Assembly (NCBI GenBank): GCA_903885595.1
Contig: CAISJJ010000068.1
Coordinates: 10,671-74,670 of the forward strand
Length of the DNA: 64,000 nt
Reading direction: 5' to 3'
From: an uncultured Bacteroidales bacterium
GTDB taxonomy: Bacteria; Bacteroidota; Bacteroidia; Bacteroidales; FEN-979
Shown: positions 3,341-56,160 of the stretch, piece by piece
Layout of the letters: the number at the start of each line of letters is the position of its first letter
How positions within the stretch are numbered: the first letter of the stretch is position 1
Program-made: the position numbers and the translations under genes
The notes under the pieces: model-generated
The model's input: only the letters and a program-made list of their open reading frames with translations
Databases searched by the model: none
What the model was told of the DNA's origin: nothing

Positions 3341-3359
3341 CAACGCAATACCTTGAAAA

Positions 3360-12754: not shown

Positions 12755-12759
12755 TGCAC

Positions 12760-12799: not shown

Positions 12800-12810
12800 A
12801 AAAAGGTAAC

Positions 12811-13005: not shown

Positions 13006-13079
13006 TTATTCATTGTTTAACTTGTGATTAGCTTCAAAAGTTCCCGGAATCGGGGCGCTAACGCAAAAAATCAGAAACT

Positions 13080-13427: not shown

Positions 13428-13447
13428 ACCAGCTTGTCCGATAAAGA

Positions 13448-13480
13448 AAGAAAGCCGTTCCCTCTAAGGACGGCTTTCTT
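13448..13480. terminator. hairpin between the convergent rplT and thioredoxin-like genes (likely a bidirectional terminator)
   Basis: The 11-bp stem AAGAAAGCCGT (13448-13458) pairs with ACGGCTTTCTT (13470-13480) around an 11-nt loop. It is flanked by A-rich sequence on the left and T-rich sequence on the right. Confidence 0.6.
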
Positions 13481-13501
13481 CGTTATGGTCAAACACGGGG
13501 A

Positions 13502-14920: not shown

Positions 14921-14958
14921 AAGGTCATTTTTGTATTAGTAACGTAAAGTTTGTAATT

Positions 14959-28929: not shown

Positions 28930-28953
28930 TTGACTTTCTGATTTCATATTTTT

Positions 28954-30171
28954 ATGGACATTGTCATTACTGGTTTGCAATCTTATGATAATGATATAGG
29001 TTGTAATAGTATCAACCTTGCCCATGAATTTGCGAAGAACCATCGTGTACTATATGTAAATTATGCGCTTGACCGGCTTACCCTTTACCGCGAGCCAAAA
29101 AATCCGAAGGTTCTGTTCCGAAAAAAGATTATCAGGGGGGAAGCCGAGAACCTCATAAAAGTTGCCGATAATCTCTGGACGCTCTATCCAAAAACAGTAC
29201 TGGAATCGATAGGCCAGCTGCCAGTGAACTTCCTGTTTGACTTCCTGAATAAAATAAATAATAAACGCTTTGCAAGGCAGATTTCCATTGCCATGCAAAC
29301 GCTTGGGTTTTCTGATATCATCCTGTTTACCGACAATGATATGTTCAGGAGCTTCTACCTGAAAGAGTTACTGAAGCCCAACCTGTTCATCTATTATTCA
29401 CGCGACTACATGATAGGTGCCGACTGGTGGAAACGGCATGGAATCCGCATTGAAGCGGAGTTGATCAGAAAAGCCGATCTGGCGGTAGCCAACTCTGTGT
29501 ACCTGACCAATTACCTGAAAAAATTTAATTCTTGTTCCTATTATATCGGACAAGGCTGTGATGTCAGTGCATTTGATAGAAAACTGATTACCTCTGTTCC
29601 CGACGATATCCGAAACATGCCTAAACCTATCATCGGATATATCGGTGCATTGTTTACTTCGCGTCTCGACATTGACATTATTCACCTTTTAGCGACAAAG
29701 CACCCCGAATGGTCTGTTGTGCTTGTCGGACCCGAAGATGACGGGTTCAAAGGAAGTAAGCTGCATCAGGTAAAAAATATCCATTTTCTTGGAAGCAGGA
29801 ATCCCTCAGCCTTGCCTTCTTACTTATATGCCTTCGACGTTGCGATAAACCCTCAGATACTGAATGAGGTTACAATTGGGAATTATCCCCGGAAAATTGA
29901 TGAATACCTTGCCATGGGTAAACCGATAGTAGCCACAAAAACCGAAGCCATGGAGGTTTTTGAAGGATATACCTACCTTGCATCAACGGCCGGGGAATAC
30001 CTGAAATTGACCGAACTGGCCCTGGTGGAGGACAATGAGGATTTGGCCAGTCAGCGGGAAAATTTTGCAAGGAGTCATACCTGGGAGGCCAATGTAAAAG
30101 CTATCTTTGAAGCCATTGAATGTATGAAGAGAGATAAATCCCCAAAAACAGGTAACAATGACAATCGATAA
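28954..30171 (+). CDS. GT-B fold glycosyltransferase (GT1/GT4-type, TuaH-like)
   Basis: 405 aa. The C-terminal segment NPQILNEVTIGNYPRKIDEYLAMGKPIVATKTEAM is the GT-B nucleotide-sugar binding region. It is a close paralogue of the N-terminal about 395 aa of the 41423..43252 protein. Confidence 0.75.
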   Translation: MDIVITGLQSYDNDIGCNSINLAHEFAKNHRVLYVNYALDRLTLYREPKNPKVLFRKKIIRGEAENLIKVADNLWTLYPKTVLESIGQLPVNFLFDFLNKINNKRFARQISIAMQTLGFSDIILFTDNDMFRSFYLKELLKPNLFIYYSRDYMIGADWWKRHGIRIEAELIRKADLAVANSVYLTNYLKKFNSCSYYIGQGCDVSAFDRKLITSVPDDIRNMPKPIIGYIGALFTSRLDIDIIHLLATKHPEWSVVLVGPEDDGFKGSKLHQVKNIHFLGSRNPSALPSYLYAFDVAINPQILNEVTIGNYPRKIDEYLAMGKPIVATKTEAMEVFEGYTYLASTAGEYLKLTELALVEDNEDLASQRENFARSHTWEANVKAIFEAIECMKRDKSPKTGNNDNR

Positions 30172-31348
30172 AATTCATATTGGTGATAAGGCTTCCATTA
30201 AACACAAAATCACAGATAAAGACATTGAGCAGTTTGTCGATTTGACCGGAGATAATAATAAGCTCCATGTGAATGAGGAATATGCACGCAAAACGGAGTT
30301 TAAGCATCCGGTCGTTCACGGGATGCTGGGCGCTTCATTTATTTCAACCGTGATTGGGACCAAGCTTCCGGGCGATGGTGCGCTCTGGTACGCCCAAACC
30401 CTCGAATTTTTGAGACCAGCAAGGGTAGGAGATACCATAACCGTTACCGGTGAGGTAATCGGAAAAAATGATTCAACCAAAACCGTTGAAATTAAAACGG
30501 AAATTCTCAATCAGCACAAACAAGTAATAACTACCGGCGTTGCCAGGGTCAAATTGGTTGAGTTGCAAAAAGCACCGGAAATCATTCAGACCGGTACGGA
30601 TGAGAAATCAGAAAGGGTCGTAATTATCCTGGGAGCAACCGGAGGTATTGGACAGGCTGCTGCGCTAAAACTGGCTTCTGAAGGCTACCATCTCGTCCTC
30701 CATTATAATACCAACAAAAAACTTGCAGTGTCAATCAGGGAAGCTGTTCAGAAAACCGGCAGAAAAGCAATTGCAGTGCAGGCCGATCTACTTGACCCGT
30801 CTGCGGTTGGTTCCTTTATGGAGGCCGTGAACAGGGAGTTCACTTCGATATATGGTTTCGTAAATTGTTCCAGTGTTAAAATTCCCTCGGTTAAATTCAC
30901 CGACCTTGAATGGAGTTATCTTCAGGATCACCTGGACATAAATATTAAATGTTCTTTTCACATTCTTAAAGAGATCCTGCCGAAAATGGAGGTTCAGAAG
31001 TTTGGAAAAATTGTGTTTATTACAACCCAGGCCATCGAAACTCCAAATTCTGAGTGGCTTCATTATATCACGGCAAAATCGGCACTGCATGGCTTTGCAA
31101 AAGCGCTCGCCATTGAATACGCACCTAAAGGAATACAGGTTAACATGGTTTCGCCCGGTATGACTGATACCGATCTGCTTTCGGAGGTCCCGCAGAAAAT
31201 CAAATTGCTGTCAGCCGCCAAAACACCACTCCGGAGATTATGCACTCCCGGAGATGTGGCAAACAGTATCGCTTTTTTACTTTCCGACAGCGCAAATTTT
31301 ATAACCGGTGAAACAATCAGGGTAAATGGAGGACAAGTAATGATATGA
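30158..31348 (+). CDS. fusion protein: N-terminal MaoC-like (R)-hydratase/dehydratase hot-dog domain plus C-terminal short-chain dehydrogenase/reductase (FabG-like)
   Basis: 396 aa. The N-terminus LTGDNNKLHVNEEYARKTEFKHPVVHGML is the MaoC motif. From about aa 160, ILGATGGIGQAAALKLA (TGxxxGxG), YITAKSAL (YxxxK) and NMVSPG mark the SDR. Confidence 0.8.
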   Translation: MTIDKIHIGDKASIKHKITDKDIEQFVDLTGDNNKLHVNEEYARKTEFKHPVVHGMLGASFISTVIGTKLPGDGALWYAQTLEFLRPARVGDTITVTGEVIGKNDSTKTVEIKTEILNQHKQVITTGVARVKLVELQKAPEIIQTGTDEKSERVVIILGATGGIGQAAALKLASEGYHLVLHYNTNKKLAVSIREAVQKTGRKAIAVQADLLDPSAVGSFMEAVNREFTSIYGFVNCSSVKIPSVKFTDLEWSYLQDHLDINIKCSFHILKEILPKMEVQKFGKIVFITTQAIETPNSEWLHYITAKSALHGFAKALAIEYAPKGIQVNMVSPGMTDTDLLSEVPQKIKLLSAAKTPLRRLCTPGDVANSIAFLLSDSANFITGETIRVNGGQVMI

Positions 31349-33081
31349 ATGCACTTACTTTTTCTGAGTTGTTCCGGCTGAATGAAGAATTAGGTGAGTT
31401 GTTGCGTGAAAAAGAGGCAATTTCTCTCAAGATTTTGTCGAATGTTACCATGAATCAGCTTAAGCCCATTTTGGAGTATGCTCTTCGCAGCGAATCCCTG
31501 AATGCGGTCGCTGAAATGACCTCCTATGATAATATACTGCAGGAGAGCATGCATATACAAGGGAAAGCGATTCCTGTCGTTTTCTGGGAATTATGCAATC
31601 TTAAATCAAGTTTCGCCTTTGAAATAGAATATTATACGCCAGAGGAAATTTCCAGGTATGCAGAAAAAACGACGAAAGAACTTGAGCTGCTCTTTGATAA
31701 TCTTAGGCAGTCTCCATTGGTAATATTTAACCGGTTTTCGCACATCTTATTCACGAATCATACGATTACAGGAAATAATTTTGAACGGTTTGTTAAACAA
31801 CTGAATGATTTTTTAATTCAACATGCTCCGCCGAATTTCCTGCTGATCGATCTTGACCGTATTTTTAGTGCAATTTCCCTTGATGCTTCCGTAGATCTTA
31901 GAAATTACTATAGTTCAAAAGTATTGTATACCGTAAATTTTCTTAAATCATATACATCACAAATAGTCCCCGTGATCCTGTCAACCTATGCAAAGTCGCG
32001 GAAAGTGATCATTCTTGATTGCGATAATACCCTTTGGAAAGGCATTGTTGGAGAGGATGGATGGGAACACCTTGCGATTTCTGATAAAGACAAGGATGGG
32101 ATTTATTTTAAAGAGGTACAATGTATTTTAAAATCGCTGATAAAAAAGGGAATTGTGCTTTGCCTTTGCAGCAAGAATAATGCAGAGGATGTTGAGGAGG
32201 TCTTTCAACACCGGCACGACATGGTGCTGAAATCGGATGATTTTGTCATTAAAAAAATCAACTGGAATGACAAGGCAAGCAACATCAGGGAGATTGCCGG
32301 GGAACTCAATCTTGGAACCGACAGTTTTATCTTTGTTGATGATTCAGAATTTGAAATAAACCTTGTGAAGGAACAGTTGCCGGAAGTAAAAACAATCCAG
32401 GTTCCTGTTAAGCTTTTTCATTATCCCAGGATGATTCTTGATCATTTGCCGCTTTGTTTTTCCTTAAGCTTCACAAATGAAGACCTTGCCAGGGTGCAGA
32501 TGTACCAGCAGGAATTACGCAGAACCACCGAAAAAAGCAGGTTCCAGGATATGGATGATTATCTGGCATCGCTCGGAATTAAAGTGGTCATTTCTGAAAA
32601 AAATCCGGAGGAGATGGAGCGGCTGACCCAGTTAACGCAGAAGACAAATCAATTCAACCTCACAACAAAACGATATTTGCCCGGTGAGATGCAGCAGTTT
32701 TATCAGTCATCTCACACCGATGTTCTCAGTTTAAGTGTAAGCGATAAATTCGGGAATTTTGGAATTACCGGGCTTTGTATCATCAAATACTCGAAAAACA
32801 TTGCCGTCATTGATACGTTGCTGTTGAGTTGCAGAATCCTGGGACGAAATATAGAGTCAGTTTTTCTGATGGAGATCGTTAAGCGGGTGTACATGAAGAG
32901 ATATGACCTGATTCAGGCAACATATAAAAAAACTTTAAAAAATGGAATTGTTGAATCATTTTATGACAAGAGTGGATTTGCCCTTCTTGGAAGCGATAAT
33001 GATGAACGGCGCTATGAAACAACATGCCGGAAATTCCTGGGTAATGCAAGGCCTGTAAAATATATAAAGGTGATTTCCTAA
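31345..33081 (+). CDS. FkbH-like HAD-IIIC family protein
   Basis: 578 aa. The central HAD motif is VIILDCDNTLWKGIVGEDG, followed by CSKN and VDDS motifs. The C-terminal GNAT-like fold contains LLLSCRILGRNIE. This architecture is characteristic of the FkbH / HAD-IIIC family. Confidence 0.8.
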   Translation: MNALTFSELFRLNEELGELLREKEAISLKILSNVTMNQLKPILEYALRSESLNAVAEMTSYDNILQESMHIQGKAIPVVFWELCNLKSSFAFEIEYYTPEEISRYAEKTTKELELLFDNLRQSPLVIFNRFSHILFTNHTITGNNFERFVKQLNDFLIQHAPPNFLLIDLDRIFSAISLDASVDLRNYYSSKVLYTVNFLKSYTSQIVPVILSTYAKSRKVIILDCDNTLWKGIVGEDGWEHLAISDKDKDGIYFKEVQCILKSLIKKGIVLCLCSKNNAEDVEEVFQHRHDMVLKSDDFVIKKINWNDKASNIREIAGELNLGTDSFIFVDDSEFEINLVKEQLPEVKTIQVPVKLFHYPRMILDHLPLCFSLSFTNEDLARVQMYQQELRRTTEKSRFQDMDDYLASLGIKVVISEKNPEEMERLTQLTQKTNQFNLTTKRYLPGEMQQFYQSSHTDVLSLSVSDKFGNFGITGLCIIKYSKNIAVIDTLLLSCRILGRNIESVFLMEIVKRVYMKRYDLIQATYKKTLKNGIVESFYDKSGFALLGSDNDERRYETTCRKFLGNARPVKYIKVIS

Positions 33082-33125
33082 AGGTCTATCTTTGCAAAAA
33101 TCAGTCATAAACTCATTTTGTCAGC

Positions 33126-33362
33126 ATGGAAGAAAAAGTAAGGCGAATTATGTCCAGTGTATTTCTGGTAGATATTGAAAAAATTGATGAAAATGCTTCA
33201 CCTGAAACACTTCCCAAATGGGATTCGCTGGGGCATTTGAACCTGATAACATCCATTGAAGAAGAATTTGGAATCACACTGGATGATGAACAAATCATTG
33301 AGATGCTCAATTATAAACTGGTTTTAGAGGTTATCAGGGAGTGTTTGAAGGCTTCTTCCTGA
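33126..33362 (+). CDS. acyl carrier protein
   Basis: 78 aa. Contains the phosphopantetheine attachment motif WDSLGHLNLI (Ser codon 33225-33227). It is acidic and of four-helix size. Confidence 0.8.
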   Translation: MEEKVRRIMSSVFLVDIEKIDENASPETLPKWDSLGHLNLITSIEEEFGITLDDEQIIEMLNYKLVLEVIRECLKASS

Positions 33363-33974
33363 TCAGGGGCGCCAGGCTTTGGCTTCGTGGTTATATTGTC
33401 GTAACAAACGGGCAGGATTTCCGCTTACCACCGAATAGGGAGGAACGTCTTTAGTTACCACGCTGCCTGCCGAAACCACACTATGTTTTCCAATGACAAT
33501 CCCTGGAAAAATCACGCAATTGGCGCCAACCCAAACATCATCTTCAATGATAATGGGCGATCGCGTAAATCCCTGCTCAAGGATGGTTCTGGTAACATCT
33601 TCGTAATTATGACTCATTCCGGTCAGCAGGATTCCCTGGGCCAATCCGACATCATTTCCAATGGTGATAGGGCCGATGAGTGTGCAACCAAGGCCAACAA
33701 TACTGCGGTCGCCAATAATGATGTCTCCAACGCAATTGTTAATGGCCGTGAAATCTTCAACTGTTGAATAATTCCCGACGCTGAATTTGTTAAAAGGTAA
33801 AACATCAAGTCGGGTTCGCTTCCTGATTACTGCGCCCTTTCCTTTATGATGGATAAAAGGATTTATGAACCAGGCTACAAATTTCCGGGGCCTGGCCTGA
33901 TTCTTTGGCATCAAAATCCTTAAGGTCAATAATTTAAGTTGTGGATTCGATTTTATTTTTGCCGCTATGCCCAT
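33363..33974 (-). CDS. left-handed beta-helix (hexapeptide-repeat) acyl/acetyltransferase
   Basis: 203 aa. Hexapeptide repeats IGD.S.VG.G..L.G...IGN.V and VWVGANCVIFPGIVIGKHSVVSAGSVV, ending PPYSVVSGNPARL. It is a paralogue of the C-terminal domain of the 41423..43252 protein. Its stop abuts the ACP stop. Confidence 0.8.
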   Translation of the reverse strand: MGIAAKIKSNPQLKLLTLRILMPKNQARPRKFVAWFINPFIHHKGKGAVIRKRTRLDVLPFNKFSVGNYSTVEDFTAINNCVGDIIIGDRSIVGLGCTLIGPITIGNDVGLAQGILLTGMSHNYEDVTRTILEQGFTRSPIIIEDDVWVGANCVIFPGIVIGKHSVVSAGSVVTKDVPPYSVVSGNPARLLRQYNHEAKAWRP

Positions 33975-34028
33975 ATTTCACTTTTTATTATCAATGGATT
34001 TTCTTCCTGCCATAAAATGAACCTTTAT

Positions 34029-34970
34029 TTACACTGAAAGGTTTGAAAGTTTACCGGAATCAGATTTTACCAGTGCACAATAATTTATAGTGACTTTGAG
34101 CCTGATAATTTCATCCATGGGTAAATCTTCAACGGGGAGCACCAGCTCCTGTTCAATCTTTAGTTCGTTGCCGCCAATCAGGTTCCTGATCTCGTCAATT
34201 TGTTTAAAATGATAAACATGATCTATTGCGGGGCAATTCACACAGGTTGAGATAAATGCAACACCATCTGGTGTAAGCAACCTGCTTATTTTCAACAGTA
34301 ATTCTCCTGGATTTTCAACATGTTCCAGAACTTCACCCATCGTAATAAAATCAAATTTTCCGATGGGATCATATTCCAGGACATCTTTTACAATGTATTC
34401 AATATGAGATGAACCACCTGTAAAATAATTGATGAATGACCTGGATACCTCCATTGACATTTTACTGATATCGATCGTCGTATAATGGATGTCGGGACCA
34501 AGTATGTGAAAAGCGTCATTCAAAAATAAACCATGCCCTGGCCCAATCTCGAAATAGTGTTTTATTCTCCCCTTTTCGCTGTTAAGAGCGTTCAGCAGGA
34601 ACTGATACATCCTGTAGTGACTTCCCCAAAGAAATTGAGAGATAGCCAACCCGGTCATGTATGCTTTCATGCGAATATCGGCATTATATACCGCTTCTAT
34701 GGTTTGAGAGGTTTTCTCAGCTGGGTATCTCCCTGTTTTCATAAAATAACGCTGGCTGATCATCATGTCATTACACAACGTCAGGTATGAATCTACAGCA
34801 TAATCCAGTGGAATTTGCTGTGCATCCAGGTAACCCTGGTAATCATTTATAAACTGTTCTGCTTGGACAAAAAATGCCGGATCCTGTTTATTCAGATATT
34901 TCTCCAGTTTCATTTTTTGCAGTGGAGAACGTTTATAAACCAGTTGTAACAGTTGATCGAGATAACCCAT
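34029..34970 (-). CDS. class I SAM-dependent methyltransferase
   Basis: 313 aa. Motif I is YFEIGPGHGLF and the post-I/II region is FDFITMGEVLEHVENP. Confidence 0.75.
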   Translation of the reverse strand: MGYLDQLLQLVYKRSPLQKMKLEKYLNKQDPAFFVQAEQFINDYQGYLDAQQIPLDYAVDSYLTLCNDMMISQRYFMKTGRYPAEKTSQTIEAVYNADIRMKAYMTGLAISQFLWGSHYRMYQFLLNALNSEKGRIKHYFEIGPGHGLFLNDAFHILGPDIHYTTIDISKMSMEVSRSFINYFTGGSSHIEYIVKDVLEYDPIGKFDFITMGEVLEHVENPGELLLKISRLLTPDGVAFISTCVNCPAIDHVYHFKQIDEIRNLIGGNELKIEQELVLPVEDLPMDEIIRLKVTINYCALVKSDSGKLSNLSV

Positions 34971-35003
34971 AATCGGTTTAGTTATAAATGAACCTGTTTC
35001 CTG

Positions 35004-36299
35004 TTAATCCCAATCCAGACTTTCAAGGATGGCAATTAATTCGTGCGGACGGTATGGTTTAGAGATGTACTCGTCCATTCCTGCTGCCAGGCATTTTTCA
35101 CGATCGGTAACCATTACATGGGCGGTTACTGCAACAATCTTGATTCGTTTTGTTTCTTTTTCCAATGCCCTGATCACACGGGTTGCCTCAATCCCATCCA
35201 TAATAGGCATGGCGATATCCATCAGGATCAGATCGTACTGAGAATTTTTAAATTTTTCAACGGCTATTTTCCCATTCTCGGCAAGCTCAACATGATGTCC
35301 CGAACGTTCGAGACTGGTCATTGCAAATTTCTGATTTAATATGTTGTCTTCAACAAGTAGTATAGAAAGCGGCCTCAGTGCTTTTTTTTGAGAAATAACG
35401 CCTAGTCTTTGATTTGTAAGTAGTTCGTCATCTCCTTTGTCGACGACCAATGTGAACCAAAAGGTGGATCCATCTCCTTTTTTACTGCGAACCCCAATTT
35501 TACCATTCATCAAACGTGTGAGGTTTTTTGATATGGAGAGCCCCAAACCTGTCCCTTCAAACTGTTTGATCAGTGGATTTTCCAATTGGGCAAAATCATT
35601 AAACAGGCTTTGCTGTTCTTCGTCAGAGATCCCAATACCGGTATCGGTCACTTCAAATTTTAATAATACTTCACTATCAGGATTCAGTGAGGATGGACCG
35701 GTGATCCAGTCTGGAATAAATTCGACGTTTTGATCGAATCCGCCGTGTTTCAGATCGATGGTTTCAACCGCGACAACAACATGTCCTTCATTGGTGAATT
35801 TGATAGCATTGTTTGTGAGGTTGATGAGGATTTGCTTCACCCTGACGGGATCACCAATAACGCAGGTAGGCACGGTTGACTGGATTTTGGAAAAAAGATC
35901 AATGCCTTTTCCCTTGGCTTTTATTGATAAAAGCCTGATAACCTGGTGGATTTCGTCCTGGAGGAAGAATGGTTTCTGATCCAGTTTCAACTGACCGGCT
36001 TCAATCTTTGATAAATCGAGAATATCATTGATGATTGTAAGCAGGTTGACACTTGAAATGTTGATGATCTCCAGAAATTCCCGCTGCTCGCTGGTTAGCT
36101 CGGTTTGACTTAAAACATTATAAATCCCAATAATACTGTTCATGGGAGTTCTGATCTCATGGCTCATATTGGCCAGGAACATGGTTTTTGACCTGTTGGC
36201 ATTTTCAGCCTCCTGTTTTGCTTTTATAAGGGCACTGCGAACCTTTTCATGTTCCTCTTTTGTGACAAACCCTTCATTATTAGCCTTCAATTCGTCCAT
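35004..36299 (-). CDS. cytoplasmic hybrid sensor histidine kinase (HisKA-HATPase_c-REC) without a recognisable input domain or TM segment
   Basis: 431 aa. The H-box is [14 protein letters not shown], with an N box [10 protein letters not shown] and G boxes DTGIGI and GTGLGLSI. The receiver contains ILLVEDN...[10 protein letters not shown]...KPY. Confidence 0.85.
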
Positions 36300-36300
36300 T

Positions 36301-37713
36301 TTATAATTTATTCAATTGATTTTTAATGATTGAGTAAAGTTCCTGCTGATTGATAGGTTTGGAGATATAGTCATCGAATCCCGCTTCTAAAAGCTTTTCT
36401 TTATCCCCGGCCATTGCATAAGCTGTTTGTGCAACGAAAGGAATAGATTTGTACTCCTTCCATTTTTTTCTTATTTCCTGCATTAACCTGATTCCATCCC
36501 AGGGCGGAGGAAGATTAATATCAAAAAGCATGATGTCGAAAATTTTTCCCTCTTTGTATGTCTGCTCCATAATCCTCATTGTTTCATCACCATTGACCGA
36601 TGTGATCACATTGCCGAGTGATTTTGTCATTTCGTACAACACAATTTTATTCATCAGGTCATCTTCGATTATGAAGATCTCTAAACCTTGCAGCGTTTTG
36701 AATTTCTGCTTGCGCGTTGGTTCCTTGGTAATATGGTCGGTTTTGTTTGTTTTTTCAGGAGGGAAAAAGATGGTAACTGTAGTTCCGATCCCTTTGGCCG
36801 ATTCGATTTCGATGTGTCCCCTCATTAATTCAACGAGACTTTTTGCCAGGGGTAACCCCAGGCCTGCACCTTGTGCCTCGTTGGAATATCCAAGGGTTTC
36901 CTGTCTGAACGGATCAAAGATAACCGGCAGGTAGGAGGGGTCAATACCTGAACCTGTGTCTTTTACCCGTATACAGATTTCATCCTTGTCACCGATAAAC
37001 TCTGTCGAAACATTAATAAACCCGTTTTGCGTATATTTTATTGCATTTTCAACAATTGCGCTGATCACTTTTGTCAACCCTTTTTCATCAACACAAGCCT
37101 GGGGCAACTCGTTGGTCTTTAAATTCAATTTCAGTTTTTGCTCATTGGCTTTGAAGATATACAATTGGGTTGCATTGGCAACGATGGTGTTTAAATCGCA
37201 TGGCTTGAGCACAATCTGCATATCATTTGCTTCAAGTTTGCTGATATCGATGATATTGTTCAACAAATGCAGCAACCGGTCACCACTGTCGGAGATAGCT
37301 CTTGCATAATCATACAATTCCTTATTCTCAAGCAGTGATATTTCCGCTTCCAGTAAACTGGAAAAACCAATGATGTTATTTAACGGGGTACGAATCTCAT
37401 GGCTGATATTGGATAAAAATGCATTCTTCATGAAATTTGATTCCTCAGAACGCTTTAATGCACGTTTCAGAGTGAAATCAGTTTTTTCACCCTCTTCGTA
37501 TTCCTCTTTCATCGATTGAATTCTCTCCTGTATTTTTGTTTCAACCGAATCTTTAAGTTCTTCATTAAGGGCATTGGCTTTACCAAGTTCTGCGGTTTTA
37601 TCTGAAACTGATTCAGCAAGTTGTTTGTTCTTTTTTAGCAGCGTGTACACAAAAGCCAGACAAATGAGTAGCGCAAGAAATAAGAGAATGGGGATAAATA
37701 TTGTATTTTGCAT
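36301..37713 (-). CDS. membrane-anchored hybrid sensor histidine kinase (1 TM, coiled coil, HisKA-HATPase_c-REC)
   Basis: 470 aa. The N-terminal TM is [22 protein letters not shown]. The H-box is [14 protein letters not shown], with DTGSGI and GAGLGLPLA. The receiver contains IFIIEDD...[10 protein letters not shown]...SKPI. It is separated from the next kinase gene by 1 nt. Confidence 0.85.
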
Positions 37714-37721
37714 CTGATCAG

Positions 37722-38528
37722 TTATTTGTAGGCAACATATAAATCTTCTTCGGGATTTATTGCATATTGATTAATATTTTCAATCCATTTTTCTTTGGTA
37801 GGATTGTATGTTTTTACCACAAAGCCTCCCTTTTCAAGCCTGTTCTTATAATCCTGACCATAAATCCGCACATGATCAAACTGGCCAAAAACACGTTCAC
37901 GTGTTTCCGGATCAATTGCCAAAGGATCTTCGAAGGTTTTTTCCAATAATTTGGAAATTGGTACCTGCAGGATAGCCCAACCTCCGGGCTTCAGTACCCG
38001 GTAAAGTTCTTTGATCGCCAATTCATCGTCTGGTATGTGTTCAAGAACGTGATTACATATGATGACATCAAATGCTTCGTCATCATAAGGAATGCTGGTG
38101 ATATCCAACAGGTTGGTTTGCCGTGCATAATAATACCCTTCAAGATATTTAACACCTGGGATATAAGTTATATTGGTCATTGAATCAAGTATAACGCGCA
38201 GACAACCTTCAGGAGCTACGTGAAACACAGTGACCGGTGATGAGAAAATGGTCGATTTTTCATGCAGGAAAAGATAAACAAGCCGGTCCCTGTCTAAGGA
38301 GTAGCAACGGGGGCAAACATTGTTCTGCCGGTATCCGGCTCCAACAATCTGTTTTTCAAATAGTACAGGAAGATCCGATCCGCCAGGTAAAAATTTGCGA
38401 AATGATTTCTTGCAGTATGGACAGTAGTAGGAATCACCGGTATAAAATAATCCGTTTACCTTCTGGTAGCCTCCTCTGAGTTTCCTGCCAAGCCAGTAGG
38501 GAACCAATTTTTTTAATGCACTTTTCAT
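37722..38528 (-). CDS. SAM-dependent methyltransferase with an N-terminal Cys4 zinc-ribbon
   Basis: 268 aa. The zinc-ribbon cysteines are CPYC...(29 aa)...CPRC. The Methyltransf_11-like core is FDVIICNHVLEHIPDD...LKPGG. Confidence 0.7.
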   Translation of the reverse strand: MKSALKKLVPYWLGRKLRGGYQKVNGLFYTGDSYYCPYCKKSFRKFLPGGSDLPVLFEKQIVGAGYRQNNVCPRCYSLDRDRLVYLFLHEKSTIFSSPVTVFHVAPEGCLRVILDSMTNITYIPGVKYLEGYYYARQTNLLDITSIPYDDEAFDVIICNHVLEHIPDDELAIKELYRVLKPGGWAILQVPISKLLEKTFEDPLAIDPETRERVFGQFDHVRIYGQDYKNRLEKGGFVVKTYNPTKEKWIENINQYAINPEEDLYVAYK

Positions 38529-38539
38529 AGCCGAAATTT

Positions 38540-40261
38540 TTAGTTATTCAATATTATTAATTTCCTTGTAACTGCTGAGTAATCAGTTTGAAAAATCAAG
38601 GAATAAACCCCCGGTTTCAACGATTCCCTGTAAATGATGAATTGGTATTTACCTGGTGGTTGAAGCGCTGATCTCCTAAGCATAACCATACGTCCCTGGT
38701 CATCAAGCAGCCGTATGGTAATATCGGTTGAATGTATAAGCTGGTATGCGACATCGCATTGATCTGTGAATGGATTTGGAGAAATGACAAGTTTCAGATC
38801 GGTTAGGTTTCCATGTTCTGGCGTGTCAAGGAGCGAAGAATCGCTACACTCATAGGCTCCTATGTCGTATGAAACGGCAAATGGGCGTGGCCGGTTTATG
38901 TGGTCATAGGAAAGATCGAATCCTGCCACAGGTAAAGCATTATTAACGGCAGGGGAAGTAGATTTCAGGTCAAAAATTTTCAGACCCGGATCCAAAAAAC
39001 CGGGGTAATTGATATCACGGGTGGTGAGGTTTTTAAAAAGAGTCACATCAATTGTAGCCGGACTAAGGTTAATATAAGCTTGTTCCTGGAGTGTTTGATA
39101 GGATCCCGGATCAACGATTATATTATTTGCTATAACATTGCCTGTACTCTGATTATCCGTAAACCGAACACCATAGCTTTTCGGGGAGATGATTGTATTG
39201 AAAACGATCATACAGGAATTGCCAGGAGATGTATATTCAGGGCCGACATAGATCCCGTGTTTTAACCAGGGAGTATAATTCTGGGTTGGTTTATAGGCTT
39301 TTCCCGGGTTTATGATAAGGTTGTTATATATATATTGTTTTCCGAAGGAGATTACGTCGATCCCATCGCCCAGCCCGTCTGTGATTCTGTTGTTGAAAAC
39401 ACTGGCATTCGTGCCCCCGCCAATAAGTATCCCCGACATCTGATACGTGATTGCGAGTTTGCTGTCATTAAGAATCACATTGTCGTGTATGGTGCATGCT
39501 GAATCGGTGGAGCTGACCTGGATACCATCCCATCCTGCTTCCTGGACCAGGTTTCGGTAAACTTTCACCCCTTTCAGCAAATGAGGCAACACAGTAGTAT
39601 CCCTTCCTCCACAGGTAATTACCTGGCCGGCATACTTGGAACTTCCGATATACATACCTTCCATCCCGGTATGGTGGATGTAATTATCATGGATGCTGAG
39701 ATTCCGCAGTGTGTACTTATCCCTGGTTGAGGTGAAAGAACAATTTGGATCAGTTTTGGCAAAAATACCTGCAAGTCCGACATTGCCAATTTCCAGACCC
39801 TCAATCTCAATATCCGTACTCAACCCATCAACAGACAAACCGGCGCCAATAAACTGGTCAATTTTAATTCCATGCTGCAGCGCTGATATTCCAGTGCCTG
39901 ATAATTTTATATAGGAGCAGGAGTCGAATTTAACCCCGTAATTTGATCCGCCGGTAATGGTTACAAGGCCATCAGCGTTTTGGATGATTATAGGGTCAGT
40001 TTTCGTACCATGCATGTATGAAAGAAGTAAAAATGTTTTGATCCCCTTCTTTAAGCAAATGGTATCACCTCCCCTGACCATCGCAGCGTTACTATGGCCG
40101 TTGATCAGGGTTACCGAAGAGTCGACCAGGAGTTTACAGTGCTTGTACTGAGCCTGCCCGATAAATGTAAATGTCAGCATACAAAATGTAAGCAGAAAAA
40201 ACCACGATTTCCTGTAAGCTGCTAAACCTGACATCGTTGAATTATTATCCACGTTTTGCAC
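38540..40261 (-). CDS. right-handed parallel beta-helix repeat protein with a T9SS type-A C-terminal sorting domain (candidate secreted glycan-modifying or degrading enzyme)
   Basis: 573 aa with a signal peptide. Repeated G..I....N..I.NN/HDN turns are typical of PbH1 repeats. The C-terminus LVISPNPFTDQCDV...GVYSLIF is a type-A CTD. Confidence 0.65.
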   Translation of the reverse strand: MQNVDNNSTMSGLAAYRKSWFFLLTFCMLTFTFIGQAQYKHCKLLVDSSVTLINGHSNAAMVRGGDTICLKKGIKTFLLLSYMHGTKTDPIIIQNADGLVTITGGSNYGVKFDSCSYIKLSGTGISALQHGIKIDQFIGAGLSVDGLSTDIEIEGLEIGNVGLAGIFAKTDPNCSFTSTRDKYTLRNLSIHDNYIHHTGMEGMYIGSSKYAGQVITCGGRDTTVLPHLLKGVKVYRNLVQEAGWDGIQVSSTDSACTIHDNVILNDSKLAITYQMSGILIGGGTNASVFNNRITDGLGDGIDVISFGKQYIYNNLIINPGKAYKPTQNYTPWLKHGIYVGPEYTSPGNSCMIVFNTIISPKSYGVRFTDNQSTGNVIANNIIVDPGSYQTLQEQAYINLSPATIDVTLFKNLTTRDINYPGFLDPGLKIFDLKSTSPAVNNALPVAGFDLSYDHINRPRPFAVSYDIGAYECSDSSLLDTPEHGNLTDLKLVISPNPFTDQCDVAYQLIHSTDITIRLLDDQGRMVMLRRSALQPPGKYQFIIYRESLKPGVYSLIFQTDYSAVTRKLIILNN

Positions 40262-41444
40262 GTTCCCAATTAACCGATTGTTGTTTTTTTAAATATCTGA
40301 AAAAGCCCAGATACACAGCCAGATTCATGATAAAAAAATAGTACGGAACAAACAAAATCTTGATTTTTATCTTTTGTCCTTCCAGGTACCAGCCCAGCAA
40401 TGCCATTAAATAAAAGATAAATTGTCCGGCAAGCAGCCACATATAAATGCTTGAGAAATCGAAGCGCTCACCAATAAAAACAATCGCCAGGTTACAGCAC
40501 ATAATTATCAGTAAGCCAAGTGGCGCAAGGGTCCACCGCAAAACCCTGTGAGAAATATACTGAAATGAAAGAATTCCATATTTGAATGGGTTTAATAATT
40601 CCTTTAGTCGTACAATGGATTGAATTCCACCTGCTGATATCCTGATTTTTCGCTTTAGTTCTTCCCTCACATTGGCAGAAGGGTTTTCAATGGCAAATGC
40701 ATCCGGATCATATTGAATGGTATACCCTTGCATGGCAATTCTCAGGGAAATGATAAAATCATCGAGCAGGGTGTCTTTTTCAATCGGACGAAACAGGGAG
40801 GTTCTGAGTGCAAACAATTCCCCGGCAGCGCCAACAACTGAATGAAGACGGGCATCCCATTGTTTGAGTTTTGATTCATATTTCCAGTATATACCCTCTG
40901 TGGCCGCAGCAGTGTCTTTTGAAAACAGCCTTTTTTCTCCAGAAACACAACCGACATTTGGATTTTTAAAAAGGTTAACGATTCGGCGAATGGACTCTTT
41001 TCCAAGCATGGTATTTCCATCGGAAAAGATAACGATCGGGGTTTTTACGAATTGCATTCCGCGGTTCATTGCTGCAATCTTACCGGCACGTTCCGGCTGA
41101 TGATAAACCTCAACTCCTTCGTACTTTTGCAGTAATTCAGGGGTCCCGTCATCTGATCCGTCTGTAACCCAAACATGCCTTACTTTTTCCCTCGGATAAT
41201 CCAATGAAAAGGAGTTTTGAAGCTTCATGTCGATAAAATCCTTTTCATTAAATGCAGCAACAAACAATGTAACTTCTGGTTCATAAACTTCACCACCTTT
41301 ATCACCTTCCCTTTTTGCAAACATTTCTTTGATCCTGACGAGCAAAAAAAGCAAAATGCCATACCCGATATAGGCATAAAAAATCAGGAACAGAAAAATC
41401 CAAAAAATAATTTTCAATGTGATCATTGTTTCATCCTTTCCCAT
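40245..41444 (-). CDS. multi-TM family-2 glycosyltransferase of the PgaC/IcaA/NodC/cellulose-synthase-like type
   Basis: 399 aa. It has an N-terminal TM, a GT-A core (FVAAFNE, TDGSDDGT, FSDGNT, LLDDFIISLR) and three or more C-terminal TM helices. RKIRISAGG replaces the usual QxxRW. An alternative start at 41426 would give an ATGA overlap with the upstream gene. Confidence 0.8.
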   Translation of the reverse strand: MGKDETMITLKIIFWIFLFLIFYAYIGYGILLFLLVRIKEMFAKREGDKGGEVYEPEVTLFVAAFNEKDFIDMKLQNSFSLDYPREKVRHVWVTDGSDDGTPELLQKYEGVEVYHQPERAGKIAAMNRGMQFVKTPIVIFSDGNTMLGKESIRRIVNLFKNPNVGCVSGEKRLFSKDTAAATEGIYWKYESKLKQWDARLHSVVGAAGELFALRTSLFRPIEKDTLLDDFIISLRIAMQGYTIQYDPDAFAIENPSANVREELKRKIRISAGGIQSIVRLKELLNPFKYGILSFQYISHRVLRWTLAPLGLLIIMCCNLAIVFIGERFDFSSIYMWLLAGQFIFYLMALLGWYLEGQKIKIKILFVPYYFFIMNLAVYLGFFRYLKKQQSVNWERAKRG

Positions 41445-43252
41445 GTTTTTGTTTCACTACTATATTGTTTGAGCAACTTGGCCGGATTGCCTCCCACAAT
41501 GGAATAGGGGGGGACGTTTTTTGTGACAATGCTTCCGGCAGCTATCACCGCATGTTTGCCTATCGTTACACCGGCAACAACAACGGCATTGGCGCCGATC
41601 CACACCTGGTCTTCAACCACGATGTTGGAAAATGTACTTTTCTGTTTACTGGGGGGAGTGTTAATATCTTCATAACCATGATTTAATCCAGATAGCACAA
41701 TGTTTTGGGCAAACATAATATCGTTCCCTATGGTTACTGGTCCAATGATCACATTGCTCATTCCAATCCGGGTACGGTCGCCGATAATCACCGACCCAAC
41801 TCCGTTATTTATAGTCGAAAAGTCTTCAATGGTTGAATCATTTCCCAGTTTGAAATCATTCCAGGGGAACACATCAATTCGTGTCCGCCGACGGATTGTC
41901 GACCGCTTTCCCCGCTTATGTATGAACGGGTTGATGAAAAGTTTCACCCATGTCCTGGGGCGCGCCTGGTTATTGGGAATAAGCGACCATAGCATAAATT
42001 TCTTGATCCTGGGGTTCGATTTGAACCTGGACAGCCATGATGTTGACTTTTGAATTTTGGGTGGAGGTTGATCATTTTTAACGAGTGCTATCGCTTTATA
42101 AATCTCGTTTACATTGGCTTCCCAGGTATGACTGCGGGCAAATTCTTCACGGGCTTTGGCTAAATCAGGGGTGTTCTCTTTCAGTGCACGTTCGACCAGG
42201 GATAAATACTCTTCTTTTGAGCTGGCGAGGTAGGTGAAGGTTTCGAACACCTTCATTGCTTCTGTCCTCGTTGCGACTACTGGTTTTCCCATCGAAAGGT
42301 ATTCATCAATTTTTCGGGGATAATTTCCGATCGTTACTTCATTAAGTATTTGCGGATTGATCGCAACATCGAAGGTTGCCAGGTACATAGGCAACTCGGC
42401 AGGATTTTTACTGCCAAGAAAATGGACATTATTCAACCGGTGAAGTTCACTTGCTTTAAATGCCTCATCTTCAGGTCCAACGAGAACGATTGACCAATCA
42501 GGACGTTGTTTTGCAAGGTGGGTTATTATTTCCATGTCGAGCCGCAGGGTGAACAAGGCGCCAATATAGCCAATAATTGGATGATTTATCTTCTGAATAT
42601 CATCAGGGACAGTCTTGATCAGTTGCAAATCAAATGCACTTACATCACAACCCTGGCCAACATAATAGGCGTGGGGGTTGAATTTTTTCAGATAACCGGC
42701 CAGGTAGACTGAGTTTGCAACTGCAAGATCCGATTTCCGAATGAGGGCTGCTTCAATGCGGATTCCCTGTGTTTTCCACCAATCGACGGCAATCATGTTA
42801 TCGCGCGAATAATAGATATACAATGATGGCTTCAAATATTCTTTCAGGTAAAAACTTCTGAACATATCACTATCATTGAATAGCACAAAGTCTTTGAAGC
42901 CGAGTTTGTTTACCGCCCATGAAATCTGTTTTGCAAACCGTTTATTGTTTATTTTATTCAGGAAATCAAAAATGGCATCATATGGAACCTGGCTGATTGA
43001 TTCCAACATGGTACGGGGATAAAAACTCCATAAATTATCCTGGATTTTAATAAGGTTTTCAAGTTCACCCCTGAGCATTTTTTTCCGTTTTCCGATCTTC
43101 GGGTTATGGCGCTCCCGGTAAGCCGTCAGCCTGTCGAGTGGGTAGTTTACATAAAGTACCCGATGCTGTTTCGCAAATTCAATCGCAAGATTGATGCAAT
43201 TACTTCCAATATCGCTATCAAAAGCCTGTAAACCGGTTATAACAATATCCAT
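41423..43252 (-). CDS. bifunctional fusion: GT-B glycosyltransferase (TuaH-like, aa 1 to about 395) plus hexapeptide-repeat acyltransferase (aa about 410-609)
   Basis: 609 aa. The N-terminal part aligns end to end with the 28954..30171 product (MDIVITGLQ...SHTWEANV). The C-terminal part aligns with the 33363..33974 product (NQARPR...FINPFIH..GK...IGD...VWIGANAVV..GV.IGKH.V..AGS.VTK.VPPYS...GNPA.LL.QY). Confidence 0.8.
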   Translation of the reverse strand: MDIVITGLQAFDSDIGSNCINLAIEFAKQHRVLYVNYPLDRLTAYRERHNPKIGKRKKMLRGELENLIKIQDNLWSFYPRTMLESISQVPYDAIFDFLNKINNKRFAKQISWAVNKLGFKDFVLFNDSDMFRSFYLKEYLKPSLYIYYSRDNMIAVDWWKTQGIRIEAALIRKSDLAVANSVYLAGYLKKFNPHAYYVGQGCDVSAFDLQLIKTVPDDIQKINHPIIGYIGALFTLRLDMEIITHLAKQRPDWSIVLVGPEDEAFKASELHRLNNVHFLGSKNPAELPMYLATFDVAINPQILNEVTIGNYPRKIDEYLSMGKPVVATRTEAMKVFETFTYLASSKEEYLSLVERALKENTPDLAKAREEFARSHTWEANVNEIYKAIALVKNDQPPPKIQKSTSWLSRFKSNPRIKKFMLWSLIPNNQARPRTWVKLFINPFIHKRGKRSTIRRRTRIDVFPWNDFKLGNDSTIEDFSTINNGVGSVIIGDRTRIGMSNVIIGPVTIGNDIMFAQNIVLSGLNHGYEDINTPPSKQKSTFSNIVVEDQVWIGANAVVVAGVTIGKHAVIAAGSIVTKNVPPYSIVGGNPAKLLKQYSSETKTWERMKQ

Positions 43253-43274
43253 ATGTCTTCCTTTTCGGTTTATC

Positions 43275-44411
43275 TCATTTTACTGCAAGTTCCATGTAAA
43301 GGTTGAGTACTTGTTCGGCCATCGCTTTCCATGAAAACTTTCGTGCATTATCAAATCCCTTAAGGATAAGGGATTCGCATAGCGATGGGTCAGATAATAG
43401 TTTCTTCATGGCCCCGGTAATCTCTTCGGGGTTAAAAGGATTGATGAATAATGCGGCATTTCCACCAACTTCGGGCATTGAACTGGTATTGGAGGTTATG
43501 ACTGGTATACCGCAAGCCATGGCCTCCAGCATAGGAATTCCAAAACTTTCGCGAAGGGAAGGATAAAGAAAAATCGTGCTGAGTGCATATAAAGCAGGCA
43601 ACTCAGTATTGGGCACATATCCGGTAAGATGAATGTACTCATGAAGTGTGGGATCACCTATATCATTGATGATCCTGGTTAACTCAGTCCTGTCAAAATC
43701 AAGCATGACCAGGGGAATTTTTTCTTCTGATGAATTGAGAAAAAGTGAAAGCGCTTTCAGAACGCCCGGTGTGTTCTTTTTCGGATCGGTATTCCCGAAG
43801 AAAAAGAAGAATTTGTCAGGTAGCCTATATTTGGCCTTGATCAGGTTTAAATAGTCCTTATCTGAGACCGGCTTGAAATGGTCACTGACACCATTATAGA
43901 TAGCTTTGAGTTTATGGTCGTTCACATGAAAAAATTCACCGATCCGTTTTTTTTCAAATTCAGATACGGTGATGATCCTGGCACTGCTGCGCACAACTTG
44001 CGGTACAACGAAACGCCGGTAAAGGTTCCCGAATTTCTGATAGGAAGTGAATCCCTTTTTCAGAATACTCAGACTTTCCATGTAAATGATATCATGCAAG
44101 GTGATGATAAGTGGCACTGATGTAACGACAGGCGCGGTATTGCTCGTACAATGCAGGATATCGCAGTGAGCTTTTTTCGCTGCAGCAGGCAGGTTGACCT
44201 GCTCCCAAATTGGATAGGGGGCCGGGGCTACCTCAACGATTTTAAAATTTGCCCTTTCGTCAAGGCAGTGGTCGACATCATTTTTTACAAAAATGAAATA
44301 CTCATTTTTGCTGTCTATATCCTGGAGATTCCTGATCAACTCCAGGGCTACCATATCCATTCCGTGCTTTTTCTGCCGGAACAGGCGCTGCCCTTCAATC
44401 CCAATCTTCAT
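43275..44411 (-). CDS. family-4 (GT-B, RfaG-like) glycosyltransferase
   Basis: 378 aa. The C-terminal segment YPSLRESFGIPMLEAMACGIPVITSNTSSMPEV is the EX7E region. Confidence 0.85.
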   Translation of the reverse strand: MKIGIEGQRLFRQKKHGMDMVALELIRNLQDIDSKNEYFIFVKNDVDHCLDERANFKIVEVAPAPYPIWEQVNLPAAAKKAHCDILHCTSNTAPVVTSVPLIITLHDIIYMESLSILKKGFTSYQKFGNLYRRFVVPQVVRSSARIITVSEFEKKRIGEFFHVNDHKLKAIYNGVSDHFKPVSDKDYLNLIKAKYRLPDKFFFFFGNTDPKKNTPGVLKALSLFLNSSEEKIPLVMLDFDRTELTRIINDIGDPTLHEYIHLTGYVPNTELPALYALSTIFLYPSLRESFGIPMLEAMACGIPVITSNTSSMPEVGGNAALFINPFNPEEITGAMKKLLSDPSLCESLILKGFDNARKFSWKAMAEQVLNLYMELAVK

Positions 44412-45598: not shown

Positions 45599-45607
45599 AC
45601 GTATCTG

Positions 45608-46810: not shown

Positions 46811-46890
46811 AAGATGGTTGTTTATGAAAAAATCAGATGAGCTGCTGAAGCAAAGTTAAATATAAATCAAACCGAATACAATATCACCAT

Positions 46891-47814: not shown

Positions 47815-47847
47815 GTTTACAGGTTCTATGTGTTTCAGTATTCATTT

Positions 47848-48795: not shown

Positions 48796-48838
48796 TTAAT
48801 TGTGTAAATATTTATAGTTAACGTCTTAAGAAAAGTGA

Positions 48839-48979
48839 CTATTTTTCCATCATGTGACGGAGATGTTCCTCCTCCTTGGCTTTTTCTATTTTTTTTCTGT
48901 ATTGATACATTGCGGTTATATATCCGATTGGGGCGGCAATGAGCAGGCCAATGACCATATGTACAACAACACCTTCCAT
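48839..48979 (-). CDS. possible 46-aa small membrane protein (below the ORF-track threshold)
   Basis: My own translation is MEGVVVHMVIGLLIAAPIGYITAMYQYRKKIEKAKEEEHLRHMMEK. It has one hydrophobic helix and a charged tail. The ATG lies 3 nt after the upstream Wzy-like stop and fills an otherwise unexplained 187-nt gap in a tightly packed operon. Confidence 0.3.
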   Translation of the reverse strand: MEGVVVHMVIGLLIAAPIGYITAMYQYRKKIEKAKEEEHLRHMMEK

Positions 48980-48982
48980 TTT

Positions 48983-50470: not shown

Positions 50471-50491
50471 AATTAAAATTACAAAAAATAA

Positions 50492-52677: not shown

Positions 52678-52678
52678 C

Positions 52679-56148: not shown

Positions 56149-56160
56149 TTTACGGTGTCG

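Follow-up and report, generated by a model that had tools for sequence, protein, structure and literature searches.

How does one locus come to hold the same pair of predicted enzymes twice, once as a single protein and once as two separate genes? This is the question raised by a stretch of 64,000 nucleotides (termed the window) on contig CAISJJ010000068.1 of an uncultured Bacteroidales bacterium. The pair consists of a glycosyltransferase (GT) and a left-handed beta-helix (LbH) acyltransferase (AT). In one instance both are contained in a 609 amino acid (aa) fusion protein, and in the other they are encoded by separate genes, termed GT405 and AT203 according to their chain lengths (Table 1). 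An earlier inspection of the sequence, called here the original prediction, had placed the split halves on opposite strands with a 3.2-kb MaoC-SDR/FkbH/acyl carrier protein (ACP) cassette between them, and this arrangement is correct (cassette at positions 30158–33362). Comparison with other genomes points to a conserved Bacteroidales exopolysaccharide (EPS) operon with a core slot for the GT and AT, together with a strain-variable mosaic block that carries GT405, an acyl-ACP module and AT203 and has a putative role in acylation. The probability of this reading is put at roughly 0.6.

A BLASTP alignment of aa positions 1–397 of the fusion with positions 1–397 of GT405 displays 280 identical residues out of 397 (71%), with 83% positives, no gaps and an E-value of 0, and this bears out the gapless match that had been proposed by eye. 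Positions 408–605 of the fusion and 5–202 of AT203 show an identity of 56% (110/198), with 76% positives and no gaps (E-value = 4e-83), i.e. more than half of the positions, as had also been claimed. In codon-based DNA alignments the GT pair is 69% and the AT pair 60% identical, and 56% and 61% of the third codon positions differ, respectively. Nonsynonymous divergence (dN) is lower in the GT pair (0.21) than in the AT pair (0.37). The synonymous divergence (dS) is about 1.6 for the GT pair and is saturated for the AT pair; orthologues shared by the window and a closely related locus, L171, have dS values of 0.23–0.29 (loci used for comparison are designated by L numbers and proteins by P numbers). 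In the GT pair as well as in the AT pair, the copies are true paralogues. They are old, are under purifying selection and do not represent a recent repeat.

It had been feared that the similarity might be limited to generic family motifs. The formal protein and DNA alignments show otherwise; the similarity goes far beyond such motifs, because the AT copies score only 70–88 bits against the NCBIfam models of the WcaF family and WbbJ. The whole window contains exactly two copies of each domain, and neither a third copy nor a decayed remnant, including an AT remnant downstream of GT405, was found in it. A larger inverted duplication that would take in the neighbouring genes (396 vs. 399 aa and 578 vs. 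573 aa) was also considered; it is ruled out, as these products have no similarity.

The 609 aa protein is a genuine GT-LbH fusion, with two confidently modelled domains joined by a 10-residue linker. The identical protein is found on five contigs from the NCBI, ENA and Logan sources, and orthologues of 609 aa with 96% identity were found in three other samples. The tree set contains about 50 fused clusters (clustered at 90% identity), which reach down to 48% identity at full coverage, and nearly all of those bearing a name are from Bacteroidota or are Bacteroidales metagenome-assembled genomes. At the 50% identity cluster level few representatives look fused. It should be noted that source annotations already name these proteins GT/acetyltransferase fusions. 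The AlphaFold2 (AF2) model of the fusion, based on 42 homologues, has a mean predicted local distance difference test score (pLDDT) of 89.5, and residue blocks within positions 1–390 have values of about 78–97. The sole segment with a pLDDT below 50 is at residues 396–405, where the GT and AT alignments meet. This linker is variable in the alignment of the 42 fused homologues, and its position is the site of a single stop codon in the split form of locus L007.

The lone in-frame stop in L007 shows that a single base error could mimic a fusion, and an artefact of this type, i.e. a missed stop or a frameshift at about 42.0 kb through which two neighbouring genes would read as a single 609 aa frame, had been named as a concern. 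Such an error would have to be present in all five contigs from three sources, in the same-length orthologues of the three further samples and in clusters that have diverged to 48% identity, and the model is confident across both domains. As the same protein occurs in independent contigs and samples, an assembly artefact at the domain junction is rejected, and for practical purposes it is refuted.

Both GT copies belong to the GT-B glycosyltransferases, the Pfam “Glycosyl transferases group 1” clan with a fold of two Rossmann domains. Scores with Glyco_trans_1_4 and Glycos_transf_1 are 42.6 and 30.8 bits for GT405 and 45.0 and 33.1 bits for the fusion (cut-offs 27 and 26.4). A Foldseek search with the GT domain of the fusion gave MshA, BshA, an archaeal glycogen synthase, HepE and PimA as the best structures, with a probability of 1.00 and TM-scores on the target of 0.45–0.72; a PDB sequence search with this domain gave no match. 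The window GTs thus resemble GT4-type enzymes such as MshA, BshA, PimA and HepE in fold (AF2, Foldseek) and in the Glyco_trans_1_4 domain, but are only 13%–17% identical to the solved structures. The best NCBIfam match of both GT copies is the TuaH equivalog of Bacillus subtilis (NF047676); the scores of 82.4 and 86 bits fall well below the cut-off of 550 and concern the C-terminal half only, so that neither copy is placed in that family.

The LbH superfamily assignment is clear for both AT copies (Hexapep_2 and Hexapep, 53.8 and 39.1 bits for AT203, 30.2 and 47.1 for the fusion; cut-off 27). Their best PDB and NCBIfam matches are O-acetyltransferases of the maltose/galactoside/WcaF/WbbJ class, with which they share hexapeptide repeats and a catalytic histidine. 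The sequence matches of the LbH domain in the PDB include 3ect, 1ocx and 1kqa. The catalytic residue is His122 in AT203 (MSHNYED) and His525 in the fusion (LNHGYED); it aligns with the SH motif of 3ect, and His525 is invariant in the 42 fused homologues (alignment A1). Neither copy is an orthologue of the named enzymes: the scores are 87.8 (AT203) and 70 bits (fusion) against 192 for the WcaF subfamily NF007797, 63.5 and 41.7 against 326.3 for the WcaF equivalog TIGR04008, and about 80 against 243 for WbbJ (NF007240). The names TuaH, WcaF and WbbJ therefore denote resemblance only, since all scores are under the curated cut-offs. The AT copies also differ from the WcaF/WbbJ class in an N-terminal extension of about 80 residues and in their partners, a fused GT for one copy and an ACP cassette for the other.

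The state of the core slot, between a GT4 gene and a GT2 gene, differs among related genomes with a collinear operon. The slot is fused in L001, L002 and L171–L173, and holds a bare 395 aa GT in L003 and L004, with no LbH gene in the stretch examined. In L007, L088 and L091 a GT gene is followed by a separate LbH gene (GT4-GT-AT-GT2), and in L008, L009, L169 and L174 two GTs, or an 803 aa GT-GT fusion, precede the LbH gene. In L007 the GT and LbH open reading frames are in the same frame with one TAG between them, and read-through would give a product of about 609 aa. Thus a single point mutation interconverts the fused and split forms. Trees of the GT and AT sequences were built by neighbour-joining with 100 bootstraps on 203–395 columns. 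Fitch parsimony on the GT tree gives at least nine changes between the fused and split states, with a fused ancestor for a 41-member clade (bootstrap 93) that includes both GTs of the window. The fused form is probably ancestral for the clade of the window.

The original prediction had linked glycosyl transfer with acylation. The link is upheld by the approximately 50 fused clusters and by adjacent genes on the same strand in L007, L088, L091, L169 and L174. In three of these (L007, L088 and L091) the slot orthologous to that of the fusion has one gene for each of its domains, side by side, as in other Rosetta-stone pairs. That GT and AT are fused or adjacent time and again suggests a shared step in the assembly of the repeat unit; the AT probably acylates the sugar added by the GT, or a neighbouring sugar. 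A comparable case is GlmU (nucleotidyltransferase and LbH acetyltransferase), in which sequential sugar enzymes are likewise fused in some genomes and adjacent genes in others. In the proteins described here, however, the LbH enzyme is paired with a GT-B glycosyltransferase, and within this one family a single stop codon switches the state repeatedly.

Tandem GT-GT proteins of about 803 aa were found several times (P0029, P0032–P0039, P0071 and P0085; L174, positions 7580–9991; L008, positions 12623–15066), and L168 and L169 have two adjacent GT genes; the tandem and the adjacent forms are each followed by an LbH acyltransferase. Because these proteins recur, the GT-GT fusion is considered another recurrent state of the slot. 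The position beside the core acyltransferase is also variable: depending on the genome it is taken up by an inverted FkbH cassette, by a GT2-WbqC-PIG-L trio or, between GT and AT, by a 612 aa asparagine-synthase-like gene (L169, 10652–12792; L174, 1–1670; L175, 8136–9974). The C-terminal half of the GT domain occurs in one or more copies, at 30%–36% identity, in proteins of 1,000–2,277 aa (P0352, P0357–P0361, P0376–P0379, P0402 and others).

The second pair has a different history in each of its halves. GT405 lies inside the core-operon GT clade (bootstrap 93) and outside a 12-member clade (bootstrap 93) that holds the fusion of the window. Among 5.8 billion proteins searched, its best non-self matches are the fusions of the window lineage (71%), barely ahead of other core GTs, and neither an orthologue nor a donor lineage was found. 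The clade of AT203 has 13 members (bootstrap 83), among them the ATs of L008 and L009. The grouping of AT203 with these two to the exclusion of the fusion AT is present in 95 of 100 bootstraps, and the opposite grouping in one. AT203 is 64%–67% identical to standalone ATs elsewhere vs. 56% to the fusion AT, which in turn is about 70%–72% identical to other standalone ATs.

These relationships bear on the proposal that one GT-AT duplication took place inside the locus, after which the unit was split (or the other copy was fused), one half was inverted and the cassette was inserted between the halves. It is in keeping with such an event that both halves are clearly paralogous and present exactly twice, that the best database matches of GT405 are the fusions of its own lineage, and that the GT405 alignment reaches a few residues into the linker. 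A single segmental duplication, however, should leave the same sister relationship and a comparable divergence in both halves, and neither was found. AT203 is placed in the tree beside ATs that are linked to cassettes (L008 and L009), the dN values are 0.21 and 0.37, other genomes have inherited the AT/ACP junction as one piece, and the split copy lies in a 6,051-bp block that is missing from L171. The single-duplication model is disfavoured, and must be called improbable. Since it does not fit, the block pair is taken to be a mosaic of an old offshoot of the core GT and an AT from another subclade. The genome search and phylogeny that had been suggested thus yielded both the fused and the split-adjacent arrangements, but no single common history of the two halves. 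For annotators there is a caution here, in that two similar gene pairs in one locus do not necessarily represent a single duplication.

The limits of the block can be seen by comparison with L171, whose fusion is 96% identical to that of the window. L171 aligns with window positions 25368–28945 (90.8% DNA identity) and 34997–43861 (91.9%), with nothing between. As the alignment covers both flanks only, positions 28946–34996 constitute a clean indel. A 4-bp TTTC microhomology is present at both junctions. The GC content of the block, 41.3%, is the same as that of the flanks, and no mobile-element genes or long flanking repeats were found at the block, only short repeats at chance level. The block is also absent from L001–L004. 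L005 and L006, which are independent assemblies of the genome of the window, do contain it. A protein 97% identical to AT203 (P0121) is encoded on a short contig of a different sample, which shows that at least a near-identical AT203-like gene occurs in a second, slightly diverged genome. A scan of the block for promoters and terminators gave 26 and 7, respectively, which is near the 18.1 (sd 4.2) and 6.5 of shuffled sequence, with a sigma-70 model that is unsuited to Bacteroidota.

The whole block, including GT405, may have been built in an unsampled related Bacteroidales lineage and have reached the window lineage in recent times, through horizontal transfer or homologous replacement, in which case GT405 would be a xenologue. 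Absence of the block from L171, L001 and L003 makes one gain more parsimonious than three losses, the dS of the paralogues is far above that of the orthologues, and the cassette and AT are evidently portable. On the other hand, the search of 5.8 billion proteins gave no donor and no relative of GT405 closer than 71%, the GC content equals that of the flanks, neither mobile-element genes nor long flanking repeats were found, and the block-linked GTs of L008, L009 and L168 are just 46%–52% identical to GT405. A recent transfer of the entire block is a serious possibility, although it is not the one that is favoured.

Within the block GT405 and the MaoC-SDR gene overlap by 14 nt, MaoC-SDR and FkbH overlap in an ATGA, and the stop codons of ACP and AT203 abut without a gap. 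The FkbH product is a member of its family, with 284 bits against a cut-off of 146.65 (TIGR01686) and 72.9 against 35.75 for HAD-IIIC (TIGR01681), and it contains DCDNT, the HAD DxDxT motif. The GDxNxxH motif of MaoC and the TGxxxGxG and YxxxK motifs of SDR are present in the translation. With these motifs intact, the predicted FkbH/ACP/MaoC-SDR module looks functional.

The cassette is not peculiar to this lineage. Among species-representative genomes of many phyla, at least 427 stretches contain an FkbH relative, and methyltransferase-MaoC/SDR-FkbH-ACP is a conserved module across phyla. Homologues of the 313 aa methyltransferase (45%–52% identity) lie directly upstream of MaoC-SDR in L012, L013, L015, L020, L024, L030, L031, L035, L038, L040 and L041. 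Among the FkbH loci, only L008 and L009 also contain the GT/AT family of the window, and both have its convergent AT/ACP junction. The arrangement in which the AT meets ACP-FkbH-MaoC-SDR stop to stop was found in five of six AT203-clade members examined (the window, L008, L009, L168 and L170). The placement of the cassette in the EPS locus differs among genomes, e.g. in L168 it sits between the Wzy and GT2 genes. Position 114 of AT203, eight residues before the catalytic His, is Gly in all 13 members of the clade and Asn in 88% of other ATs, including the fusion (Asn517). In 68 loci the gene directly after the FkbH-linked ACP was identified as an AMP-binding enzyme in 15, an LbH protein in 11, another N-acyltransferase type in seven and a DUF2172/DUF4910 protein in three (alignment A2, among L008–L087). 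The LbH partners are usually about 171 aa, co-directional with the ACP, of the WbbJ/MAT class and about 30% identical to AT203.

Several further observations concern the module. The order of methyltransferase, MaoC-SDR, FkbH and ACP is kept in Bacteroidota, Cyanobacteria, Omnitrophota, Nitrospirota, Campylobacterota and other phyla (e.g. window positions 30158–34970; L012, L015, L024, L030, L040 and many of L008–L087), and an LbH gene of about 171 aa is often the fifth gene. In L170 (positions 1725–3471) FkbH is split into fragments of 373 and 171 aa, by a frameshift or as a pseudogene, and MaoC-SDR, ACP and AT are intact. The cyanobacterial LbH partner in L024 (positions 11985–12497) has Gly at the position of the AT203 catalytic His by BLASTP; catalysis may rest on another residue in this protein, but the local alignment may also be in error. 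No cassette accompanies the sister-clade ATs of L174 and L175. A metagenome scan with AT203 gave mainly core GT4-GT-AT-GT2 loci (at most 60% identity) and distant LbH genes, with no further cassette-linked copies. Literature searches on FkbH in glycan loci gave nothing direct: no publication in the library searched combines “FkbH” and “O-antigen”, or “HAD-IIIC”, “acyl carrier protein” and “glycosyltransferase”. Nothing direct was found on GT-acetyltransferase fusions, and none on a WcaF-like LbH clade tied to an FkbH/ACP module. The product and role of the module appear uncharacterised.

The gene content suggests the following steps. The fused enzyme would add a sugar and acetylate that sugar, or a neighbouring residue, from acetyl-coenzyme A (acetyl-CoA), the default donor by family resemblance. 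FkbH proteins load glyceryl units, drawn from 1,3-bisphosphoglycerate, on ACP, and the FkbH of the block would do so with the adjacent ACP. The MaoC-SDR protein would then dehydrate and reduce the glyceryl to a lactyl-type group, by analogy with loading modules of polyketide synthases (PKS), and the 313 aa methyltransferase may, as an optional step, O-methylate the acyl group. GT405 would add a related sugar to the polysaccharide unit, and AT203 would transfer the three-carbon acyl group to the residue that GT405 has installed. Strains that carry the block would bear an extra, unusually acylated residue. The division of donors, with AT203 predicted to take an ACP-borne glycerate-derived acyl group and the fused copy acetyl-CoA, has good comparative support.

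The proposal can be extended beyond this locus. A free-standing FkbH/ACP/dehydratase-reductase/methyltransferase module would build a glycerate-derived three-carbon acyl group of the lactyl or O-methyl-glyceroyl type, a WcaF-like LbH enzyme that arose from an acetyl-CoA lineage with an Asn-to-Gly change would move it onto the sugar of a GT paralogue, and the module would be a general glycan-acylation cassette. This EPS decoration route is put forward tentatively, at a little short of even odds.

A number of points weigh against the acylation role and the history proposed here. The sequences of both AT copies assign them to the CoA-dependent maltose/galactoside/WcaF class and not in the acyl-ACP class of LpxA and LpxD. 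The AT203 clade is no more basic than other ATs, i.e. net charge gives no ACP-docking signature. The clade member in L169 has no FkbH cassette within 10 kb, and the commonest neighbour of the ACP is the AMP-binding enzyme, which is no transferase. The functions of all these proteins are predicted. The use of ACP by AT203 is inferred from gene context, and the identity of the acyl group (lactyl, glyceroyl or a methylated form) from domain content. The origin of GT405 from a fused ancestor is tentative, because inner support in the 41-member GT clade is 30–68 in neighbour-joining trees on 203–395 columns. The indel itself may reflect that the window lineage acquired the block, or that L171 lost it through a TTTC-mediated deletion.

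The points on the donor would also agree with AT203 being a second acetyl-CoA-dependent O-acetyltransferase, whose position next to an FkbH/ACP module that serves another enzyme or product is incidental; both ATs score best against CoA-dependent acetyltransferase families and have the same catalytic His. An incidental neighbour, however, would not be expected to keep the stop-to-stop AT/ACP junction in five of six clade members despite the differing cassette positions, nor would the same ACP be expected to have an LbH gene immediately after it in 11 of 68 loci from different phyla. The block contains no other candidate acyltransferase, and Gly114 is specific to the clade. A second acetyl-CoA enzyme is therefore judged rather unlikely, and transfer from ACP by AT203 is preferred.

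Known systems offer partial parallels to this preferred route. In polyketide pathways (methoxymalonyl-ACP, tetronate, OocJ) FkbH loading also involves a dehydratase, a reductase, a methyltransferase and a dedicated ACP; here these are separate genes, no ketosynthase or PKS is nearby, and the module is in glycan loci beside an LbH transferase. Because of this location the acyl group would end on a sugar and would not prime a polyketide. The DH-KR-FkbH-ACP module of BryA is said to have been proposed to make a lactate starter. OocJ is a DH-MT-FkbH-ACP loading module (PMC4552970). LpxA and LpxD are a precedent for an LbH trimer that uses an acyl-ACP donor on a sugar substrate, but AT203 has only weak matches to LpxA (E-values of about 1e-7 to 1e-10), is much closer to the CoA-dependent class, and has no detected C-terminal helical domain of the LpxA type.

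A glycerate-derived, O-methylated acyl group on a bacterial sugar is found in Campylobacter jejuni flagellin, where pseudaminic acid carries 2,3-di-O-methylglyceroyl (PMC3068675). That modification differs in being an N-acyl group on a nonulosonic acid of a glycoprotein, and not on an EPS. The DUF2172/DUF4910 proteins that follow the ACP in three loci may be of the same aminopeptidase-like type as Cj1295, a C. jejuni gene to which the di-O-methylglyceroyl modification has been linked; this would hint at a shared pathway. The C. jejuni locus presumably uses HAD-IIIC/ACP genes.

Fusion and fission between consecutive glycan enzymes are already known. What is new here is the documented one-codon toggle between the fused and split states, the mosaic origin of the second pair, the portable 6-kb block, and the WcaF-like LbH clade linked to an FkbH/ACP module. 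The case shows with clean comparative evidence how polysaccharide loci diversify: GT and AT partners are fused or split by a single stop codon, and a portable block can equip an otherwise conserved operon for a second decoration with a sugar and an acyl group. If the donor assignment is true, non-acetyl acyl groups derived from glycerate would reach bacterial glycans by a widespread route based on ACP, and the two LbH enzymes would form a natural pair of close relatives for studying the choice between acetyl-CoA and acyl-ACP (Asn517 vs. Gly114). The main value of the locus is as a lead to an uncharacterised glycan-acylation cassette.

Table 1. Positions of the fusion, the accessory block and the EPS operon in the window.
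Feature	Position	Strand	Evidence or remark
Accessory block, 6,051 bp	28946..34996		Present in window lineage, absent from close relatives
GT405, standalone paralogue of the fusion GT domain, 405 aa	28954..30171	+	BLASTP, Pfam, NCBIfam
MaoC dehydratase fused to SDR reductase	30158..31348	+	Pfam MaoC_dehydratas and adh_short_C2; syntenic with FkbH in many phyla
FkbH-family HAD-IIIC loader, predicted glyceryl-ACP-forming	31345..33081	+	NCBIfam TIGR01686
Acyl carrier protein, 78 aa, WDSLG phosphopantetheine site	33126..33362	+	Pfam PP-binding, 21.4 vs. 20.8
AT203, standalone LbH acyltransferase of the ACP-linked clade	33363..33974	-	BLASTP, Pfam, NCBIfam, tree
S-adenosylmethionine (SAM) methyltransferase, 313 aa, part of the FkbH module	34029..34970	-	Pfam Methyltransf_12 and Methyltransf_23
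Core Wzx/Wzy-type EPS operon holding the fusion gene	35004..57393	-	Pfam, NCBIfam; collinear in L001, L003, L007, L008, L169, L171, L174
GT-LbH fusion gene, 609 aa	41423..43252	-	Open reading frame; Pfam Glyco_trans_1_4 and Hexapep; core EPS operon slot between GT4 and GT2 genes
LbH acyltransferase domain of the fusion (aa 406–609), MAT/GAT/WcaF class	41426..42037	-	56% identity to AT203; PDB sequence matches; His525
Flexible inter-domain linker of the fusion (aa 396–405)	42038..42067	-	pLDDT <50 in AF2 model
GT domain of the fusion (aa 1–395), GT-B fold, TuaH-like/GT4-like	42068..43252	-	71% identity to GT405; Foldseek

The operon that contains the fusion begins, in the order of transcription, with a receiver-Bac_transf gene (positions 56161–57393), followed by genes for an OEP-like protein, Wzz/LysM, Wzx, an FkbM-type methyltransferase and Wzy. 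After Wzy there are four GT2 genes, the GT4 gene, the fusion, a GT2 gene, and genes for a beta-helix protein of the type IX secretion system (T9SS), a methyltransferase and two hybrid histidine kinase-response regulators, and the operon ends at position 35004. A T9SS gene set on the plus strand (a PKD/CHU_C protein, PorP/SprF and a 1191 aa cargo) converges on the operon. Between the two lie GT405, MaoC-SDR, FkbH and ACP on the plus strand and AT203 and the 313 aa methyltransferase on the minus strand.

At its N-terminus Bac_transf, the initiating sugar-phosphate transferase (minus strand), has a receiver domain of the response-regulator type, and the two hybrid histidine kinase/receiver proteins close the operon (35004–37713, minus strand). 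Because of this receiver-fused transferase and the two hybrid kinases, an arrangement that is conserved in relatives, the operon seems to carry its own phosphorelay. The right-handed beta-helix protein with a T9SS C-terminal sorting domain (38540–40261, minus strand) is kept inside the operon in all collinear relatives examined, and it may be a secreted enzyme that modifies or degrades polysaccharide.

The 1191 aa T9SS cargo (25354–28929, plus strand) has internal repeats at about 27511–28443, seen as off-diagonal blastn matches of 66%–78% identity. The chain length of this cargo is 1191 aa in L171 as well, and 992–1029 aa in L001, L003, L004, L174 and L175.

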